Under the pieces are notes generated by a model. That model worked only from the letters and a program-made list of their open reading frames with translations, ran no database searches and was not told where the DNA came from. Position numbers and translations under genes: made by a program. Source: a virus (Duplodnaviria; Heunggongvirae; Uroviricota; Caudoviricetes). From it: DNA of 9,989 nt. Location: IMG/VR virus record IMGVR_UViG_2562617151_000006. One strand, written 5' to 3'. Numbering within the stretch: the stretch's first letter is position 1; the number at the start of each line of letters is the position of its first letter. Of this stretch, positions 1 through 9,989 are shown piece by piece.

Positions 1-1284
1 TTACAGACTTCTGGAAGGTTGCGCAGCTCTTACAACACGCGGTTGATCTTCCGCAGCGTCTTCCAGCGCACTTAAATCACGGTCTTTCACCTCTGGCATT
101 TTCAGCGCAGAGATTAAACCAATCACTGAATATGCCATGATCATAATGGCGATCGGATACCAGGATTCCGTCATGGTGCAGAAAATACCCGCCAGGATAG
201 GACCAAAACCGGAAGCGATAAGACCACCAATTTCTTTAGAAATAGCCATCCGGGTAAAGCGGTTTTTACAGCCGAACATTTCTGCCATGGTAATGTTTTC
301 CAGAGCAAATAATCCCAGCACCGCACAGTTATGAATCACAATCAGTGCAACCATAATGGTGCTCGGGGCATAGCTTTTATCTACAATGATAGAAAGCATT
401 GGCCATGCCAGCACAATCGCGGAGGTATTCATAATAATATACGGGATCCGGCGACCAATTTTATCGGATAACCAACCAAGGAACGGAATGGTCATAAAGC
501 CGAGAATCGAACTGATCATCAATGCATCTGTTGGAATTGCTTTGTTAAACAATAACGTCTGCACTAAATAGCCTGCAAGGAAAGTCTGAATTAACCCGGA
601 GTTACCCGCCTGACCAAAACGCAGCCCTGTTGCCAGCCAGAAGGATTTGCTCTGGAACATGCTACCAGCAGGTGCAGGTTTTGCTGTCGGTTGGTTACTG
701 TCGTTAACCTTCTCAAAGACCGGGCTTTCTTTCAGATTCATACGCAACCAGATAGCAAAGACCATCACGACAACACTCGCCAGGAACGGTATACGCCATC
801 CCCACGCCAGCAGTTCCTCTTTACTGAGAATGAAGAACATAAAGGCCCAGATTGCCGTTGCGCTCAAGGTTCCGCAGTTAGTTCCCATAGCCACAAATGA
901 GGAGATAATTCCGCGCTTACCTTTTGGCGCATATTCCGCCAGCATCGTACCGGCACCGGAAATTTCCGCACCTGCACCCAACCCCTGAATAATACGCAAC
1001 GTCACCAGCAAGATGGGTGCAAAAACACCAATCTGTGCATAGGTCGGTAACACACCAATTAAGGTGGTACAGATCCCCATCATGGTGATGGTAATAAAGA
1101 GCACTTTTTTACGCCCTATTCTGTCGCCCATTTTGCCGAAAATAAATGCTCCGACAATACGCGCCACATAACCTGCACCGTAGGTTCCCATTGCCAGAAT
1201 TAACGCCATTGCCGTTGATGATTCAGGAAAAAATATTTCATGAAACACTAACGCTGCGCCGAGCGAATATAACTGGAAATCCAT
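1..1284 (-). CDS. ydfJ: MFS metabolite:H+ symporter family transporter (YdfJ-like), complete at the 3' end but apparently lacking about 30 N-terminal residues
   Basis: 427-aa minus-strand ORF with multiple hydrophobic segments and MFS-type motifs (GDRIGRKK after TM2, WGWRIPF mid-protein). The N-terminus MDFQLYSLGAALVFHEIFFP aligns with the W[FY]DF..Y..FFP region that lies about 30 residues into paralogs ShiA/KgtP/ProP (recalled). Stop codon is at window positions 1-3. Confidence 0.85.
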   Translation of the reverse strand: MDFQLYSLGAALVFHEIFFPESSTAMALILAMGTYGAGYVARIVGAFIFGKMGDRIGRKKVLFITITMMGICTTLIGVLPTYAQIGVFAPILLVTLRIIQGLGAGAEISGAGTMLAEYAPKGKRGIISSFVAMGTNCGTLSATAIWAFMFFILSKEELLAWGWRIPFLASVVVMVFAIWLRMNLKESPVFEKVNDSNQPTAKPAPAGSMFQSKSFWLATGLRFGQAGNSGLIQTFLAGYLVQTLLFNKAIPTDALMISSILGFMTIPFLGWLSDKIGRRIPYIIMNTSAIVLAWPMLSIIVDKSYAPSTIMVALIVIHNCAVLGLFALENITMAEMFGCKNRFTRMAISKEIGGLIASGFGPILAGIFCTMTESWYPIAIMIMAYSVIGLISALKMPEVKDRDLSALEDAAEDQPRVVRAAQPSRSL

Positions 1285-1525
1285 AATTCACAGGTGTTTT
1301 TTCCCATCCTGTGGTTTCCTTGGCGTTTTCTAGGTTTTTTCAGATAGTTGCATTTTTTAAAAAGCATCCTAAGTTCGATCTCAGTGTCTATCTGGGGCCC
1401 ATTTCTGTCCCATATATGCCCCAAAAAAACTCCTCAACAGATAAGTAGTTTTTTCATGGAGTTACGCGTAAAATCAATAACGGCTGGAAATCATTCAATA
1501 CTCGCACTATCGAAAAATTTACCAG

Positions 1526-1568
1526 CCAACCGCAGCACGTTCTTGCATAAGGCGTGTCTGCGGTTTTT
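1526..1568 (+). terminator. Candidate intrinsic terminator-like hairpin in the ydfJ-ydfK intergenic region
   Basis: Imperfect stem ccgcagcacg (1530-1539) pairing with cgtgtctgcgg (1553-1563), one bulged base, 13-nt loop, followed by TTTTT (1564-1568). No annotated upstream gene on this strand. Confidence 0.35.
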
Positions 1569-1887
1569 CAACTATTCAGATACATCACTCCCATCACATT
1601 CATTCCTCCACATCAAAGGCATATAGGCTATATCACCTTGATATTTTTCTTCTTCAGATAAAAACTGTTATCTATGTATACTTTTAAACCCAATCCGTGT
1701 AGAGTCTCTGCATAAGATAGTTTGCAGTTGCCACTTCAGCTTGCGCCATAAACCGCCTGATTTTTGCCGCCATCTGTTAGCATTCCTGTATACCTGAAAC
1801 GACAATGTTTATCTACGAACTTTAAGAACACCCAGGATAAAAATTGTCAACTATATCATATATAACACATTACTAATTCGAGGCTAT

Positions 1888-2001
1888 ATGAACAGCATAC
1901 TGATAATCACTTCGCTCCTTATCATATTCAGCATTTTTAGTCATGCTCTAATAAAATTAGGGATTGGCATATCCAATAACCCAGACAAAACCGATGTATA
2001 A
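1888..2001 (+). CDS. Hypothetical 37-aa hydrophobic small protein ([37 protein letters not shown])
   Basis: ATG at 1888 preceded by GAGG (1880-1883), TAA at 1999-2001. One predicted transmembrane helix. Lies 68 bp upstream of ydfK on the same strand. Below the size cutoff of the ORF track. Confidence 0.3.
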
Positions 2002-2069
2002 GTCAACATATCCTGAATCAGACATACAATATCGCAATGAAAATCAATAATATTTTAAGGAATATATTC

Positions 2070-2303
2070 ATGAAATCAAAAGACACCCTAAAGTGGTTCC
2101 CTGCGCAGCTTCCTGAAGTCAGAATTATCCTAGGGGATGCTGTAGTGGAAGTAGCAAAACAGGGAAGACCTATCAATACCAGAACATTGCTTGATTACAT
2201 TGAAGGAAACATAAAGAAAAAATCATGGCTGGATAACAAAGAATTATTACAAACAGCGATATCAGTTCTTAAAGACAACCAAAATTTAAATGGTAAAATG
2301 TAA
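2070..2303 (+). CDS. ydfK: Cold-shock-inducible prophage protein YdfK/YnaE family (77 aa)
   Basis: ORF track 2037-2303. Preferred start is ATG 2070 (MKSKDTLKWF...) because it has an AAGGA Shine-Dalgarno 9 nt upstream, giving 77 aa. Sequence recalled as the YdfK/YnaE family of Qin/Rac prophages. Confidence 0.75.
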   Translation: MKSKDTLKWFPAQLPEVRIILGDAVVEVAKQGRPINTRTLLDYIEGNIKKKSWLDNKELLQTAISVLKDNQNLNGKM

Positions 2304-2619
2304 TATAATAAACTTACTTTTTTATCATTTTTCCACTTTAACAACATTTTGCTCCACTTTTCCACGACCAAACAACTTGAAATCTGGTTAAAATAACACG
2401 CAACACTATTCTTCTTCCTTGAGTCCGCCCGGAACTCGAAAAACAAACCGAGTTAAAGCCATTTTTCACAAAATCGATTTTGGGTCTCACCAAAGTTACG
2501 GGGTTGCATACGCATTCGTTTATTTTCGAACGTGTACATACAAATATGCACAAAAATAATCAAAATTATTTTCTGAGATGCATTATGATATGAACACCAA
2601 TTTCGTATAGAGTCTCACT

Positions 2620-3210
2620 ATGTCTCGAATTTTTGCTTACTGTCGGATATCAACGCTGGATCAGACCACCGAAAATCAACGCCGGGAAATCGAAAGTGCA
2701 GGTTTTAAAATCAAACCTCAGCAAATAATCGAAGAACACATTAGCGGCTCAGCAGCAACCAGTGAGCGTCCTGGTTTTAACCGGTTGCTTGCTCGCCTGA
2801 AATGTGGTGATCAATTGATTGTGACAAAACTGGATCGCCTTGGTTGTAATGCAATGGATATCAGGAAAACAGTGGAACAACTGACCGAAACAGGTATCAG
2901 AGTGCATTGCTTAGCATTGGGGGGCATTGACCTGACCAGTCCAACAGGAAAAATGATGATGCACGTAATTTCAGCAGTCGCTGAATTTGAACGAGACCTT
3001 TTACTTGAACGCACTCATTCCGGGATAGTAAGAGCCCGCGGCGCAGGGAAACGTTTTGGTCGACCACCTGTGTTAAATGAAGAACAGAAACAGGTGGTAT
3101 TCGAACGAATTAAGTCAGGTGTAAGTATAAGTGCCATTGCCCGGGAATTCAAAACCTCGCGGCAAACCATTTTAAGAGCCAAAGCAAAACTTCAGACACC
3201 TGACATATAA
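2620..3210 (+). CDS. pinQ: Serine recombinase, Gin/Hin/Pin-family DNA invertase (196 aa)
   Basis: N-terminal catalytic motif YCRISTLDQ (active-site Ser), resolvase-type catalytic domain and C-terminal HTH ([16 protein letters not shown]). Size and sequence are typical of Pin/Gin invertases. Confidence 0.9.
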
Positions 3211-3307
3211 AAAATAATCTCGGTGTGAGATGCTTTACGTCTTCCAAGCCCCCTTCCTTGCCGTAAATGGAGAGATACATCTAATTATAGAATTTATATG
3301 TTTTACC

Positions 3308-3883
3308 CTACGGCAGTGCTGGCCATTCAATATCCGGTGCAGTTGATGTATCAACACGGTTCAGCAACACCCGATACTTTTTCCAGGCTTCCAGCAACAA
3401 GGTTTCTTCCTCCGTTGCGATCTCCAGATCCACAGCATCCTGAAGCGGCGCTATATGCTCACTGGCTATCTGCATCAGGCTGTTTTTTGTTTCTTCCGCC
3501 TCCCGGATCCGGAACAGTTTTTCTGCTTCCGTATCCTTCACCCAGGCTGTGCCGTTCCACTTCTGATATTCCCCTCCCGGCGATAACCAGGTAACATTTT
3601 CCGGTAACGGACCGAGTTCAGAAATAAATAACGCGTCCCCTGATGCCACGTCATAAACCGTTTTACCCCGATGATCTTCAACGAGATGCCACGATGCCTC
3701 ATCACTGTTGAAAACAGCCACGAAGCCTGCCGGAATATCTGGCGGTGCAATATCGGTACTGTTTGCTGGCAGACCTGTATGAGGCGGAATATATGCGTCA
3801 CCTTCACCAATAAATTCATTAGTTCCGGCCAGCAGATTATAAATTTTTATGGTCCGTGGTTGTTCACTCATTCTGAATGCCAT
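3308..3883 (-). CDS. tfaQ: Tail fibre assembly protein (lambda Tfa-like, 191 aa)
   Basis: 191-aa ORF starting [18 protein letters not shown]..., recalled as near-identical to lambda Tfa. Its ATG overlaps the stop of the upstream stf remnant (TAATG), indicating translational coupling. Confidence 0.9.
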
Positions 3884-4191
3884 TACGCAAGCCTCACAAT
3901 ATAGTTAAATGCGATGTTTTTGACGGTGTTTTCCGCGTTACCAGCAGCGTTAACGGTGATGGTATGTCCATGTGAACCAATCGCAACGGAGTGCGTATGA
4001 GCACCAATACCGACAGTATGTGCGTGTGCACCTGCGCTTGCAGCAGTACCCGATACAGAGTGCGTATGAGCGCCTGCAGAAGAAGTGTTAACACTGTATT
4101 TAGAATAATCAGGTGATCCACTTCCCGGAGCACCACTGGAACCACCTGAAACAAATGTCATCGAATGGGTATGTGCACCGGCTGTCCCCAT
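3883..4191 (-). pseudogene. stfQ: Side tail fibre (Stf) C-terminal remnant, about 100 codons
   Basis: ORF ends ...[30 protein letters not shown], matching the recalled lambda Stf C-terminus. Contains repeated GAHTHS/GAHAHT His-rich motifs. No credible N-terminal part; the frame breaks near 4158-4191. Confidence 0.8.
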
Positions 4192-4445
4192 GCATTTACC
4201 GCCCGGACTGTCAGCCTGTAATTTCCCAGCGCCAGCTGCGTGAAGCGATATGTGGTTTCCGTCGTCCGGGCCGTGCTGACCAACCGCTCACTGCCGTCGT
4301 CCGCTGCCACGGTCAGGCGAAGCATAAAGCTCACCCCCTTCACCACCTTCGGCGTGTCCCAGCGCGCCAGCACCTGGTATTCCCCGCTGTCTGCGGTGAC
4401 TTCTGCGGTCAGGTGCTGAACTGCTGGCGGCGTGACACCATTCAC
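4158..4445 (-). pseudogene. Internal fragment of a lambda J-type tail tip/host specificity gene (FN3-like segment)
   Basis: 95-codon frame with ...[66 protein letters not shown], recalled as an internal segment of lambda gpJ. Starts at a GTG that overlaps the nohA stop (GTGA). Different frame from the stf remnant. No real start or full-length gene. Confidence 0.65.
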
Positions 4446-4987
4446 CGTGCCGCTCTGGTCACCGTCAAAGTGCGCCCCGTTATCAGTTCATCCAGCGCGG
4501 CTGCTTTGTTCATGGCTTTGATGATATCCCGTTTCAGGAAATCAACATGTCGGTTTTCCAGTTCCGGAAAACGCCGCTGCACCGACAGGGGGATCCCGTC
4601 GAGAATACTGGCAATTTCACCTGCGATCCGCGACAGCACGAAAGTACAGAATGCGGTTTCCACCACTTCAGCGGAGTCTCTGGCATTTTTCAGCTCCTGT
4701 GCGTCGGCCTGCGCACGCGTAAGTCGATGGCGTTCGTACTCAATAGTCCCTGGCTGGAGATCTGTCTCGCTGGCCTGCCGCAGTTCTTCAACTTCCCGGC
4801 GCAGCTTTTCGTTCTCAATTTCAGCATCCCTTTCGGCATACCATTTTATGACGGCGGCAGAATCATAAAGCACCTCATTACCCTTGCCACCGCCTCGCAG
4901 AACGGGCATTCCCTGTTCCTGCCAGTTCTGAATGGTACGGATACTCGCACCGAAAATGTCAGCCAGCTGCTTTTTGTTGACTTCCAT
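4442..4987 (-). CDS. nohA: Terminase small subunit, lambda Nu1 homologue (181 aa) with a divergent C-terminal tail
   Basis: MEVNKKQLADIFGASIRTIQNWQEQGMPVLRGGGKGNEVLYD... (winged-HTH DNA-binding N-domain) is recalled as essentially identical to lambda Nu1 until the last 13 residues or so, which diverge at a deletion junction. K-12 synonym nohQ. Confidence 0.9.
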   Translation of the reverse strand: MEVNKKQLADIFGASIRTIQNWQEQGMPVLRGGGKGNEVLYDSAAVIKWYAERDAEIENEKLRREVEELRQASETDLQPGTIEYERHRLTRAQADAQELKNARDSAEVVETAFCTFVLSRIAGEIASILDGIPLSVQRRFPELENRHVDFLKRDIIKAMNKAAALDELITGRTLTVTRAAR

Positions 4988-5230
4988 TGTTCATTCCACG
5001 GACAAAAACAGAGAAAGGAAACGACAAAGGCCAAAAAGCCCGCTTTCAGCACCTGTCGTTTCCTTTCTTTTCAGGGGGTATTTTAAATAAAAACATTAAG
5101 TTACGACGAAGAAGAACGGAAACACCTTAAACCGGAAAATTTTCATAAATAGCGAAAACCCGCGAGGTCGCCGCCCCGTAACCTGTCGGATCACCGGAAA
5201 GGACCCGTAAAGTGATAATGATTATCATCT
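4988..5230 (-). other. Lambda-type cohesive end site (cosB with R1/R2/R3 and I1, cosN, cosQ-side flank)
   Basis: Reverse complement of 5165-5176 is GGGCGGCGACCT, the lambda 12-nt cohesive end. Flanks read (rc) ...CCGACAGGTTACG|GGGCGGCGACCTCGCGGGTTTTCGCTATTTATGAAAATTTTCCGG..., matching the recalled lambda ends. Nu1-binding R elements at 5012-5026, 5053-5067 and 5110-5126 (CGTTTCC cores); AT-rich IHF-like segment at 5078-5100. Confidence 0.8.
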
Positions 5231-5375
5231 ACATATCACAACGTGCGTGGAGGCCATCAAACCACGTCAAATAATCAATTATGACGCAGGTATCGTATTA
5301 ATTGATCTGCATCAACTTAACGTAAAAACAACTTCAGACAATACAAATCAGCGACACTGAATACGGGGCAACCTC

Positions 5376-5609
5376 ATGTCAACGAAGAACAGAACCCGCA
5401 GAACAACAACCCGCAACATCCGCTTTCCTAACCAAATGATTGAACAAATTAACATCGCTCTTGAGCAAAAAGGGTCCGGGAATTTCTCAGCCTGGGTCAT
5501 TGAAGCCTGCCGCCGGAGACTGTGCTCAGAAAAAAGAGTTTCTTCTGAAGCAAACAAAGAAAAGAGTGACATTACTGAATTGCTCAGAAAACAGGTCAGA
5601 CCAGATTGA
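5376..5609 (+). CDS. ynfO: Small ribbon-helix-helix-like protein (YnfO/YlcI family, DUF3950), 77 aa
   Basis: Basic N-tail, then a beta-strand-like RNIRFP followed by two predicted helices (NQMIEQINIALEQ; NFSAWVIEACRRRL), the typical RHH pattern. Position between cos and the lysis cassette matches the recalled Qin ynfO. Confidence 0.7.
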   Translation: MSTKNRTRRTTTRNIRFPNQMIEQINIALEQKGSGNFSAWVIEACRRRLCSEKRVSSEANKEKSDITELLRKQVRPD

Positions 5610-5666
5610 AGCAATTTAGATAATCGTGCAGACTACGCCCCCTCATATCACATGGAAGGTTTATCT

Positions 5667-6077
5667 ATGGATCAGGTAGTCATTTTTAAACAAATATTTG
5701 ATAAAGTTCGAAACGATTTAAACTATCAATGGTTTTATTCTGAGCTAAAACGTCACAATGTCTCACATTACATTTACTATTTAGCCACAGAGAATGTTCA
5801 TATTGTATTAAAAAATGATAATACAGTGTTATTAAAGGGCCTAAAAAACATTGTGTCTGTCAAATTTTCAAAGGATAGGCATCTTATAGAAACGACCTCT
5901 AATAAGCTGAAATCCAGAGAGATCACATTTCAGGAATACAGAAGAAACCTTGCTAAAGCAGGAGTTTTTCGGTGGGTTACAAATATCCACGAACAAAAAA
6001 GATATTACTATACCTTTGATAATTCATTACTATTTACTGAAAGCATCCAGAAAACTACACAGATCTTACCACGCTAA
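5667..6077 (+). CDS. ydfO: DUF1398 family protein (YdfO/YbcV-like), 136 aa
   Basis: ORF track 5652-6077. Preferred start is ATG 5667 ([10 protein letters not shown]...) with GGAAGG 7 nt upstream. Lies 57 bp downstream of ynfO on the same strand. Recalled as YdfO. Confidence 0.8.
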
Positions 6078-6228
6078 ACCATAACGTCCGGCTTCTCTCA
6101 CTCCTGAGCCGGACTGCATTGGTTTAATAAAAACCATCAACAATTGTGATTTAGATATTCGGAACCATTCAAATATAACAAAACCCCGTAAAAACGAGGT
6201 TTATGGATAAATTTTATTATTGAATACA

Positions 6229-6402
6229 TCAGATTAAATTAATCTTGACATCATAGCTTTCAAGACCCGTCATTTTTTCCCGTGCGGTAAACTGAATACT
6301 GGTAACTTCTTTCCCGGTCTTTTTCTTAAGTTCAATAATTTTTTTTGTTATATATTCAGAAATATCTGCTTCTGCTTTTGTTTTTAAGTTTTCAATATTC
6401 AT
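6229..6402 (-). CDS. gnsB: GnsB, small protein (57 aa), multicopy suppressor of secG null (Gns family)
   Basis: Minus-strand ORF MNIENLKTKAEADISEYITKKIIELKKKTGKEVTSIQFTAREKMTGLESYDVKINLI, translated by hand. Below the ORF track size cutoff. Recalled as GnsA/GnsB family. Confidence 0.75.
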   Translation of the reverse strand: MNIENLKTKAEADISEYITKKIIELKKKTGKEVTSIQFTAREKMTGLESYDVKINLI

Positions 6403-6573
6403 CATTTCCTCTTTTAGTCTGTTATGACTTTCCAGTTACACAGTAAGTCGATTATATGGTGCAAACGTGTAAAAGATAAGATGAAACATCGCAATAATCA
6501 ACATACGATAGTCTAAATTTTACACAAACAGACAAAGAGAATTTTCCTGAATTATCAATGCAATAGCATCAAA

Positions 6574-6729
6574 TCAACTCAAGAGCCTTATTGCTGCTTC
6601 CAGAATTTCTTCTGAAGTAACATGTCGATCCGCGGCTACATAAATGACTTTATGATCTCCGGTCAGAGATGGAAACCCTGCGGCCATTACAGTAAGGTGT
6701 GTTTTTTCGCCATTTGGATATTCACGCAT
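6574..6729 (-). CDS. ynfN: Small cold-shock-inducible prophage protein YnfN (51 aa from the preferred start)
   Basis: ORF track gives 6574-6846 (90 codons). Preferred start is ATG 6727-6729 (MREYPNGEKTHLTV...) with GGAG upstream. A terminator T-tract overlaps the far-upstream start at 6846, arguing against the long form. Start is uncertain. Confidence 0.55.
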   Translation of the reverse strand: MREYPNGEKTHLTVMAAGFPSLTGDHKVIYVAADRHVTSEEILEAAIRLLS

Positions 6730-6845
6730 GATGGTGTTAACTCCAGTCATCGCTGGCACTACCACTGCTGGTTCAGAGTTAAAAAAAACTATGATTTTTT
6801 TCATGATGTTACCGTAGTATGTGAGTATCCATCGAATAGACACCA

Positions 6846-6868
6846 AGCAAAAAAGCTCCCGAAGGAGC
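6846..6868 (-). terminator. Rho-independent terminator downstream of cspI (minus strand)
   Basis: Stem GCTCC (6855-6859), loop CGAA (6860-6863), stem GGAGC (6864-6868). On the minus strand it is followed by a TTTTTTGC run (complement of 6846-6854). Confidence 0.6.
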
Positions 6869-7075
6869 CTTCATTTTCACTTTTTTAAATCCAACGACAG
6901 ACGGCTGGCATTTAAGTATTGTGAAATATTATCAAATGTAATCATCATTGATTTACAAAAGATACATTTTGCCCCGAAAGGATTCATGTCAGAAACATCA
7001 AAAGATGATGTTCTATACTGGGAACCATGACAACACGGGCATCTAAAGTGAATATGGTTTGTAATATTGTCTACC

Positions 7076-7288
7076 TCAAAGCGCCACTACATGAACAGCG
7101 GCAGGACCTTTAGGTCCGTTCTCAATACCAAATTCAACTTCCTGATTCTCAGTTAATGTTTTGAAATCGTTGCTCTGAATTGCTGAGAAATGGACAAACA
7201 CATCTTTGCTGCCATCTTTCGGCGTGATGAAACCAAAACCTTTTTCAGGGTTAAACCATTTCACTAAACCAGTCATTTTGTTAGACAT
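7076..7288 (-). CDS. cspI: Cold shock protein, CspA family (70 aa)
   Basis: [38 protein letters not shown]... carries the RNP1 (KGFGFI) and RNP2 (VFVHF) motifs of the cold-shock domain. AAGG Shine-Dalgarno upstream. Recalled as CspI of Qin. Confidence 0.9.
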
Positions 7289-7430
7289 AATTATTACCTT
7301 TTGAAGAAATTAGCCCTTGGGCAGAATGGTCCGAAAAAAAATATCAGAGAGAAAAACCAACAAGGAAATCTCAAGAGGTACAAATAATAAAATTATAACA
7401 ATGACTGCTTCAGATAAATTTGTAACAAAC
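7289..7430 (-). promoter_or_regulatory. Putative cspI promoter and long 5' UTR
   Basis: A perfect TATAAT on the minus strand (complement of 7392-7397) lies about 105 nt upstream of the cspI ATG, in an AT-rich region. CspA-family genes are known to have long structured 5' UTRs. Exact transcription start and any cold-box are not determined. Confidence 0.4.
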
Positions 7431-7650
7431 CAGAACACCATTAACGCATGATTAACCACCCATAGCAAGGATTACTTTTGTAAAGAAAAACACAGCAATG
7501 AAAGAATAGCTTTATTTATTAATAAAACGTGTCATTCTGATTAAGACCTTTTATCTTACCCTTAAGATTTCAGGAATTTTGGCTCATGGAAGAGTCCTTT
7601 TTATTTAAATTTTACATTCCGCGATGTAAATGTTCCGATTTAATATTACC

Positions 7651-8674
<1,024 letters not shown>

Positions 8675-8678
<4 letters not shown>

Positions 8679-8986
8679 AGATATTTATGATGAGGACGCT
8701 CGTGCTTATTGGCAGGATTTTCAATCTTAAAGGAGTACTGATGCTGCAGATAAGACTCAACTTTTTCTGACAATTTTTCTGCTACTTCCAGGAAGACTTG
8801 CCGGACGCTCCTTCTGGCTGCTGCCTCATAAAACTCCAGCGCAGCTCCTTCAACACGGTCCATGGCGACATCCAGGTCAAAAATTTCACCGTCAAAGCGT
8901 TCTTTGTCCTGTAAGGCTACAGTTACCGTAACTTTATTCTCAAAATTACGGACTCCTTTCACAACCAGTTCATAGTCTTGAGTCAT
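8675..8986 (-). CDS. ydfR: DUF1327 family protein of unknown function, located between holin and endolysin genes (103 aa)
   Basis: 103-aa ORF with no transmembrane segment, acidic and helical. Recalled as YdfR. Tightly packed: 4 bp after essQ, and its stop overlaps the rrrQ start. Confidence 0.8.
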
Positions 8987-8990
8987 TGGA

Positions 8991-9206
8991 TTACTCTCCT
9001 CTCGCAGCCTTACGCCTGTCTTCTTTAATCTTGAAATAAAGATTTGTCAGATACGTCAGCAGGCCAAAAACCAGGCTACCCAGCACACCGATTGCAGCCC
9101 ACTGTGACGGAGTTACTTTATCGAGTAACTGCAATGCCCAGAAACCAGCATTACCCGCCGATGTGCCATAGGCAACACCTGTTGTTAACTTATCCATTGA
9201 TTTCAT
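8991..9206 (-). CDS. essQ: Class II holin, phage 21 S21-like pinholin with dual-start motif (71 aa)
   Basis: [28 protein letters not shown]...[18 protein letters not shown] has two transmembrane domains, an MKSM dual start (Met1/Met4) and a charged C-terminus, matching the recalled S21 pinholin. The track's extension to 9281 adds an unlikely 25-aa N-terminal arm. Confidence 0.85.
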
Positions 9207-9425
9207 ATCCTCACCCCGATGTACACGGATGGTGCAATATGTTTGAAAAGATCGGAGTCTACGGGGTAGTTTTGACAGCACACGTTGTTCTCAACGGCGC
9301 TAAAAAAACATACACATTAAAAATGTGGGTAATTATTTTGAAAGAAAGTCATATATAAAATAATAATACGAGAAATGTTTTCATATTTAGTGTACTGTAT
9401 ACGGCCATTTATACAGGAAAAGCCT

Positions 9426-9596
9426 ATGTCAGAACGTAAAAACTCAAAATCACGCCGTAATTATCTCGTTAAATGTTCCTGCCCAAACTGCACCCAAGAG
9501 TCAGAACACAGTTTTTCAAGAGTACAAAAAGGTGCCCTTTTGATCTGCCCTCATTGCAACAAAGTATTCCAGACAAATCTTAAAGCTGTAGCCTGA
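9426..9596 (+). CDS. ynfU: Small zinc-ribbon protein (CxxC-x18-CxxC), 56 aa; possibly YnfU
   Basis: ATG 9426 with AGGAAA Shine-Dalgarno 6-7 nt upstream. MSERKNSKSRRNYLVKCSCPNCTQ...ICPHCNKVF has four Cys in two CxxC knuckles. Gene name is from uncertain recall. Confidence 0.5.
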   Translation: MSERKNSKSRRNYLVKCSCPNCTQESEHSFSRVQKGALLICPHCNKVFQTNLKAVA

Positions 9597-9655
9597 TTGA
9601 TTTTATTAGTAACAAGTATTTTTTATATTTTAATAATATATTTAAAGCAGATAAT

Positions 9656-9679
9656 AAAAAACCCGCCTGAGCGGGTTTG
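9656..9679. terminator. Bidirectional-looking intrinsic terminator hairpin
   Basis: AAAAACCCGC-CTGA-GCGGGTTT: a 6-8 bp GC-rich stem with 4-nt loop, flanked by an A-tract upstream and T-tract downstream. The T-run is stronger on the minus strand (TTTTTATTAT). Confidence 0.6.
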
Positions 9680-9744
9680 AGATTGTGGTGCTTTTTGTGG
9701 GAGTCATCCACTTACGCACTTTGTTTTGCCATGCCAGCAGTTAG

Positions 9745-9989
<245 letters not shown>

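Follow-up and report, generated by a model that had tools for sequence, protein, structure and literature searches.

The 9,989-nucleotide (nt) stretch of Caudoviricetes DNA registered as IMG/VR record IMGVR_UViG_2562617151_000006 (hereafter the window) contains a 37-codon open reading frame (ORF) directly upstream of the cold-shock protein gene ydfK. There is hardly any doubt that this ORF is a real and known protein-coding gene, ynfT (b4748); the gene is already annotated and its protein has already been detected, and our finding is therefore a rediscovery. In our best reading, of which we are reasonably confident, ynfT codes for a stable small inner-membrane protein and opens an accessory prophage cassette of two cistrons, ynfT-ydfK. 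Purifying selection constrains the amino-acid sequence of YnfT as strongly as it constrains ydfK, and this selection acts on the peptide, beyond the mere fact of its translation. Readings of the ORF as a toxin or as a leader peptide are disfavoured.

The preliminary description of this DNA, which was made from the letters alone, had called the ORF unannotated, and this does not hold. RefSeq places ynfT (b4748) at these very coordinates, the gene appears in EcoCyc-derived lists, Pfam, NCBIfam and the PHROGs each have a family for it, and the protein was epitope-tagged and detected in 2018. When window positions 1700–2400 were compared by megablast with complete Escherichia coli genomes, the entry "ynfT: YnaM/YnfT family protein" lay under the match in the records listed. 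In strain 300709, which is 100% identical over 1700–2400, the boundaries of the coding sequence (CDS) are those of window 1888–2001 (WP_120795384.1), and other genomes likewise annotate the ORF as a "YnaM/YnfT family protein". The counterpart in MG1655 is ynfT, b4748, at 1632890–1633003 in the cryptic prophage Qin. The window itself is non-K-12 sequence: its positions 1–9744 are 100% identical to strains such as ML35 and H3, and its ynfT differs from that of MG1655 at three positions, all of them synonymous. At the protein level, YnfT matches Pfam PF23676 (YnaM) with 96.2 bits (cut-off 27) over residues 1–37 of 37 and NCBIfam NF041477 with 63.9 bits (cut-off 35), and it passes the threshold of phrog_35882 with 72.7 bits. 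Readers of the literature should be aware of a clash of names: the "ynfQ" in the table of PMC6001520 is the ynfT (b4748) of the current RefSeq, where ynfQ (b4724) is another gene, located beside cspI.

The ORF begins with an ATG at 1888, its TAA finishes at 2001, and its product has 37 residues; exactly 68 nt separate the stop codon from the ATG of ydfK (2070), on the same strand. The coordinates, the GAGG ribosome-binding site, the 37 codons and the 68-bp distance to ydfK in the preliminary description all match the sequence, and the single predicted transmembrane helix with a short polar tail was borne out as well. The Kyte-Doolittle mean of the best 19-residue stretch is 2.52, and AlphaFold2 models one unbroken helix over residues 2–30, with a predicted local distance difference test (pLDDT) score of 88.7. 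YnfT is essentially a single hydrophobic helix that ends in a conserved polar tail, GIGISNNPD(K/R)TD. Its two conserved basic residues, K/R23 and K/R34, are both found on the C-terminal side of the hydrophobic core; there are none at the N-terminus. An ATG-initiated ORF of at least 37 codons and equal hydrophobicity arose in 9 of 2000 shuffles of the 785-nt gap between ydfJ and ydfK.

As the preliminary description had noted, the gene sits at a prophage edge, about 600 nt inside the annotated end of Qin, and a paralogous region exists in Rac, which carries ynaM-ynaE. The product of ynaM (b4744, Rac, E. coli K-12) is a 37-amino-acid (aa) protein identical to YnfT and belongs to the same Pfam and NCBIfam family. 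Its arrangement is also the same: ynaM lies 68 nt upstream of ynaE, the paralogue of ydfK, and pinR and tfaR follow. The segment that Qin and Rac share, including ynfT/ynaM, measures 2.5 kb and is 98.1% identical. What sets YnaM apart from YnfT is its location in another prophage at another chromosomal site. Between the two MG1655 loci, the sequence from −52 to +23 around the ATG is identical, and there are only three differences across the ORF, all synonymous.

The strength of selection was assessed in a set of 100 loci, taken from E. coli genomes, from functional phages and from IMG/VR contigs to which a Salmonella-phage YdfK had led. Phage homologues of ynfT were searched for at the DNA level; the low-complexity filter of tblastn masks the transmembrane helix and leaves residues 23–37. 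Eighty-seven loci span the ynfT ORF, and it has exactly 37 codons in 85 of these, so that the conservation of the reading frame, which had been set beforehand as a check, was upheld. The two exceptions (L017 and L019) are decaying prophage copies, in which ydfK is frameshifted too. Among 15 intact ynfT DNA alleles, the variable columns fall 8:6:19 by codon position. The ratio of non-synonymous to synonymous substitution rates (dN/dS) between E. coli-type and Salmonella-type alleles is 0.05–0.09. Between the window and Salmonella phage 118970_sal3 it is 0.11 for ynfT (13 synonymous and 8 non-synonymous differences, Fisher p = 1e-5) and 0.08 for ydfK.

Two more distant lineages, represented by the loci L107 and L108/L109, were reached through divergent YdfK proteins. 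Between the window and the L107 ynfT, the synonymous sites are saturated (proportion of synonymous differences, pS, 0.79; of non-synonymous differences, pN, 0.16; p = 6e-9), and the values for ydfK are similar. The L107 homologue has 39 aa and a GTG start, and ends 32 nt before its ydfK; the L108/L109 homologue also has 39 aa, with a 27-nt gap to ydfK. A Shine-Dalgarno (SD) sequence is present in each lineage, namely GAGG in the E. coli and Salmonella types, GGAG in L107 and AAGGA in L108/L109. Across the lineages, ynfT contains a single indel, which is 6 nt long and in frame, and the 5' flank and the spacer are rich in indels. Invariant parts of the YnfT alignment are the core SL(L/I)IIFSI and the tail already mentioned, in which the K-to-R swaps are conservative. 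An exhaustive phmmer search of 1.84 billion representatives showed that the YnfT family is narrow, consisting of four clusters.

The protein is also seen directly. In 2018, VanOrsdel et al. fused 80 small ORFs, at their 3' ends on the chromosome, to a sequential peptide affinity (SPA) tag, and both the ynfT ORF (in the ydfJ/ydfK spacer, K-12 1632890–1633003, with the same 37-aa sequence) and ynaM were detected by SPA immunoblot; both were positive in tetracycline ribosome profiling as well (PMC6001520). Weaver et al. (10.1101/511675) reported that YnaM-SPA is more abundant than most new small proteins, and a lack of ribosome density at the start codon of YnaM was also published there. That profiling mapped reads uniquely, with two mismatches allowed. 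Because ynfT and ynaM are identical around the ATG, footprints at the start codon cannot be mapped uniquely to either gene, and the missing YnaM density is an artefact of unique mapping. For the same reason, the absence of ribosome density at the start codon, which the preliminary description had named as a refutation of the ORF, would give a false negative in K-12. Uniquely mapped reads from ribosome profiling and RNA sequencing (RNA-seq) are lost at the duplicated start region, and probably likewise at ydfK/ynaE, pinQ/pinR and tfaQ/tfaR.

Every lineage that bears ynfT has a phage-type ydfK 27–74 nt downstream on the same strand. Four diverged lineages (the E. coli type, the Salmonella type, L107 and L108/L109) have retained the pair, with spacers of 27, 32, 68 or 74 nt. 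Of 5426 complete E. coli genomes, 2807 carry it, and both CDSs are annotated in 59 of 60 evenly sampled ones. Functional temperate lambdoid phages, for example Tritos, HannyBb, Turner, Kati, mEp460_ev081, 2H10 and the PhiR series, carry the pair between int/attP or dinI on one side and the pin invertase and tail-fibre genes on the other, which is an accessory, or "moron", position. The homology of phage 118970_sal3 to the window is limited to approximately 1839–2307 and covers just a short upstream block, ynfT and ydfK, so that the cassette moves as a unit. Two further observations concern the surroundings of the pair. In several clinical strains, IS1 is inserted in the region homologous to window 1700–2400 (e.g., NZ_CP045277.1 2331285–2332762), and in one IS1-bearing genome (H1) ydfK is listed twice under the match and may be split. 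In the L107–L109 lineage only, the ydfK homologue is preceded, at a distance of about 320 nt, by a second conserved small hydrophobic ORF (L107 944–1024; L108/L109 410–514); this ORF has the motif ..YMREYII(I/V)GLT.L.SLI.I..LF.. and no counterpart in the window.

Both genes are probably transcribed together as an operon. No terminator-like site was found between ynfT and ydfK when 1285–2620 was scanned on both strands, and in L107 and L108 a spacer of just 27–32 nt leaves no room for a separate ydfK promoter, from which co-transcription is inferred. The genes ydfK and ynaE are induced by cold and in long-term stationary phase, and refrigerated cells contain their proteins. A single RNA-seq data set showed that ynfT and ydfK rose 5.7-fold and 5.3-fold, respectively, together with cspI, cspG, cspB, deaD and rhlE (PMC13058169).

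Several points weigh against this picture of a two-gene cassette. A weak sigma-70-like match is located in the spacer at 2003–2030; it is not conserved in the other lineages. In the study by Bilusic et al. (2014), two RNAs once proposed to be riboswitch-like leaders, "ttcC-ynaE" and "5' UTR-ydfK" (UTR, untranslated region), were found to bind Hfq, and the short "5' UTR-ydfK" RNA was abundant (PMC4152368). These transcripts cover ynaM and ynfT and are better read as ynaM/ynfT mRNA; the short RNA hints at termination or processing between the genes, and co-transcription is perhaps partial. The cassette is dispensable, as both genes are frameshifted in the two decaying copies. No YnfT-like ORF was found at the distant chromosomal ydfK homologues of Erwinia, Enterobacter, Limnobaculum and some E. 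coli, so that YdfK does not need YnfT, and YnfT is better seen as an add-on specific to the phage-type ydfK. Finally, because the ynfT and ynaM loci of K-12 are nearly identical, tagging with short homology arms may fail to tell one locus from the other.

Features of the ynfT-ydfK cassette in the window (SD, Shine-Dalgarno sequence)
Feature	Position	Strand	Description	Basis
Candidate promoter	1826..1851	+	sigma-E-like GAACAC-N15-TCAAC	block conserved across four lineages
ynfT SD	1880..1883	+	GAGG, 4 nt 5' of the ATG	sequence; SD kept in every lineage
ynfT CDS	1888..2001	+	37 codons and stop	ORF reading, RefSeq coordinates, PF23676/NF041477, dN/dS, SPA-tag detection
ynfT-ydfK spacer	2002..2069	+	68 nt; holds the ydfK SD AAGGA (2057–2061)	sequence; no terminator, no stable or conserved structure
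ydfK	2070..2303	+	77 aa, cold-shock protein gene, second cistron	predicted AriR/YmgB-like fold

Sigma-E promoters have the shape GGAACTT-N16-TCnAA. About 35–60 nt upstream of the ynfT ATG (at approximately 2990–3016 in locus L005), a block of similar shape reads GGAACTT-N16-TCTAA in L108, TGAACTT-N16-TCTAA in L107, TGAACTT-N16-TCAAA in the Salmonella phage and AGAACAC-N15-TCAAC in the window. In the alignment of the upstream regions, none of the four lineages departs from GAAC, AAAA and TGTC.A, and the flanks diverge. Judging from its position, such a promoter would put the 5' end of the transcript about 30 nt before the ynfT ATG, and directly upstream of ynfT we could read no sigma-70 promoter with sensible spacing. 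Taken alone, a loose sigma-E-like motif shows no enrichment in the window, with 3 occurrences against 1.4 expected. In genomic systematic evolution of ligands by exponential enrichment (gSELEX), the RpoE holoenzyme bound both K-12 spacers in vitro; those of RpoS, RpoH and RpoD did as well. We therefore treat the sigma-E-type promoter upstream of ynfT as a candidate, that is, as a lead only.

Three published entries were considered and rejected as support for it. The RegulonDB sigma-E promoter "ydfKp5" is computational and converts to approximately window 1983, away from the conserved motif. The gSELEX promoter string for ydfK (TTCCCA-16-GATAAT) maps to 882–909, inside ydfJ and not near ynfT, and the string for ynaE (CTGACA-17-TACCAT) is absent from the window. 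Farther upstream, about 220 nt from ynfT and on the opposite strand, Rfam gives a match below threshold to CssrB, a chromosomal small RNA (sRNA) of Shigella, at 1531–1668 (−), just where the segment common to Qin, Rac and the lambdoid phages begins (28.7 bits, gathering score 76, E = 0.011).

How might the cassette work? We propose that ynfT and ydfK would be co-transcribed as a lysogenic-conversion cassette and switched on along with the cold-shock genes, and that a promoter directly upstream of ynfT, possibly of the sigma-E type, may drive it. YnfT is predicted to insert into the inner membrane with its N-terminus outside and its C-terminus inside, because both conserved basic residues lie C-terminal of the core (the positive-inside rule). 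The invariant tail would then be in the cytoplasm and would be the likely contact surface, with which YnfT may bind and modulate a larger partner, as other small single-pass proteins of E. coli do. The most economical candidates for this partner would be the co-expressed cytoplasmic YdfK, or a membrane sensor on which YdfK acts. Action by binding and modulating a partner is, in our opinion, possible rather than probable. Of the functions suggested in the preliminary description, that of a membrane modulator stays the most plausible, and its modulating part is drawn by analogy.

The analogy is with MgrB, SafA, AcrZ, MgtS and PmrR, which are small single-pass regulators of the inner membrane, induced by stress and acting by binding to partners. 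Like them, YnfT has fewer than 50 aa and a single transmembrane helix, is stably made and is stress-induced; the binding of a partner is presumed. Unlike them, it is borne by prophages and has a narrow spread, and with no sequence relationship between them the resemblance would lie in the working principle only.

The second partner of the cassette, YdfK, has by structural modelling an AriR/YmgB-like fold, the fold of the "connector" proteins of two-component systems. Its similarity to the products of the ycgZ-ymgA-ariR operon is below family thresholds, with 15.9 bits for YcgZ (cut-off 80) and an hhalign probability of 18%, and that operon has no YnfT-like membrane peptide. The YdfK family (Pfam PF27475) is broader than the YnfT family. 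It includes a chromosomal subfamily in Erwinia, Enterobacter, Limnobaculum and some E. coli, in which the gene lies beside a GH94 gene or is divergent from a YnfU-family gene. These distant ydfK genes (L103–L105) are often arranged divergently from the YnfU-family gene (PF23499, zinc-binding), at a distance of approximately 120–160 nt. The Qin prophage of MG1655 likewise carries ynfU, several kb from ydfK (the relevant stretch of the window is approximately 9800–9970), and the YnfU-YdfK association may be ancestral. A scan of genome contigs with YdfK gave matches that were mostly from Escherichia and Shigella. Short contigs with 99–100% identity to E. coli ydfK are present in metagenome-assembled or draft genomes labelled "Caldithrix", "Alistipes", "Draconibacterium" and "Chryseobacterium" (L008, L010, L013 and L016); they are almost certainly E. 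coli contamination.

Other explanations of ynfT have to be weighed against the cassette. Among small single-pass proteins encoded by morons, HK97 gp15 is an example of those that block superinfection or otherwise protect the lysogen. YnfT could likewise be a moron-encoded inner-membrane protein that blocks DNA entry by superinfecting phages, or that otherwise protects the lysogen through a host membrane protein, independently of YdfK. Its place in the accessory region of functional temperate phages, near the tail-fibre and invertase genes and int/attP, and its expression from a cryptic prophage in uninfected cells would both suit such a role. On the other hand, no defence family of PADLOC matches YnfT or YdfK at E <= 1, phrog_35882 has no assigned function, and the strict pairing with ydfK and the co-induction with cold-shock genes suggest a role in host physiology; we consider this explanation unlikely. 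As for a holin or spanin, ynfT is not located in a lysis cassette: essQ, rrrQ and rzpQ of the MG1655 Qin prophage are several kb off, and ynfT adjoins int/attP or dinI and the pin invertase, not an endolysin gene. The type I toxins Hok, Ldr, TisB, Ibs and PepG1 resemble YnfT in size, in the single hydrophobic helix and in their frequent location in prophages, and the preliminary description had offered a type I toxin as one possibility. In that case YnfT would depolarise the membrane, and an antisense or overlapping small RNA would curb its translation. The 37-aa single-helix peptide and its prophage origin fit, there is a faint match to PepG1 in NCBIfam (E = 0.055), and a promoter-like match on the minus strand at 2079–2052 would read antisense into ynfT. 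However, the PepG1 match, the best among the hidden Markov models (HMMs) of toxins, reaches 13.1 bits against a cut-off of 70, and no Rfam sRNA lies over the ynfT locus even at E <= 1. The sequence scan found no terminator-like sites on either strand of 1285–2620, where an RNA of an unconventional kind is possible. Promoter-like sites occur at the level of chance (7 found against 5.1 expected), and the conservation of the minus-strand match is explained by its overlap with the conserved SD and start of ydfK. Moreover, when tagged on the chromosome, the protein is easy to detect in growing cells, where it accumulates with no evident toxicity, and ynfT always stands in tandem with a downstream protein gene. 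With no detectable antisense RNA gene, no HMM membership and an operonic arrangement, YnfT is very improbable as a toxin of this type.

The preliminary description had also considered a leader peptide for ydfK. The translation of ynfT, and not the peptide, would then control ydfK, by shielding the mRNA from Rho or RNase or by translational coupling. In favour of this, ynfT lies directly upstream of ydfK on the same strand, and the region was once catalogued as a riboswitch-like 5' leader of ydfK/ynaE that yields a short Hfq-bound RNA (PMC4152368); a cis effect may even operate alongside the function of the protein. Against it stand the conservation of the whole peptide, with dN/dS of about 0.1, and the accumulation of the tagged product. 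An attenuator, with terminator and anti-terminator structures and with selection on translation or on a few regulatory codons only, does not fit either: no such structures were found between the two genes, and dN/dS is 0.05–0.11 over the peptide. The RNA of 1850–2110 folds no more stably than its shuffles (z = +0.88), and RNAalifold on eight sequences gave −4.0 kcal/mol with a covariation term of 0, that is, no conserved structure. In addition, the spacer ranges in length from 27 to 74 nt, an SD of its own precedes ydfK, and the distant ydfK homologues do without ynfT. Taken together, these results make control by translation alone quite improbable. It is extremely improbable that the locus is a non-coding structured leader or an Hfq-binding RNA in which the ORF is incidental. 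The classification of "ttcC-ynaE" and "5' UTR-ydfK" as riboswitch-like and their co-immunoprecipitation with Hfq (PMC4152368) would favour such an RNA, whereas the substitution pattern is a coding one (an excess at third positions, a lone 6-nt in-frame indel and an intact 37-codon frame in 85 of 87 loci) and no conserved structure was found. The detection of the protein and the dN/dS values effectively refute RNA as the sole explanation. We therefore prefer the ynfT-ydfK cassette.

Elsewhere in the window, two Rfam matches exceed their gathering scores: IS009 inside tfaQ, at 3342–3540 (−), and the cspA thermoregulator at 7049–7434 (−), which covers the leader and CDS of cspI (cspI itself is at 7076–7288 (−), which is not where coordinates derived from MG1655 would put it).

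Beyond this locus, the case of ynfT and ynaM holds a general warning: ribosome profiling that uses uniquely mapped reads cannot see duplicated prophage genes, and "no start peak" does not mean absence. YnfT/YnaM still belongs to the "y-ome", yet about half of the complete E. coli genomes carry it, as do active lambdoid phages. That YnfT is selected as a protein and tied to a phage-type ydfK leads to a concrete two-protein hypothesis. In its boldest form, which we regard as rather improbable, YnfT and YdfK would make up a prophage signalling module induced by envelope stress and cold. Under the control of a sigma-E-type promoter, the tail of YnfT would bring the AriR/YcgZ-like YdfK to the inner membrane, or else both proteins together would target a sensor kinase or phosphorelay of the host, for example Rcs. 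If this were true, temperate phages would rewire the envelope-stress or biofilm response of their lysogens at low temperature.
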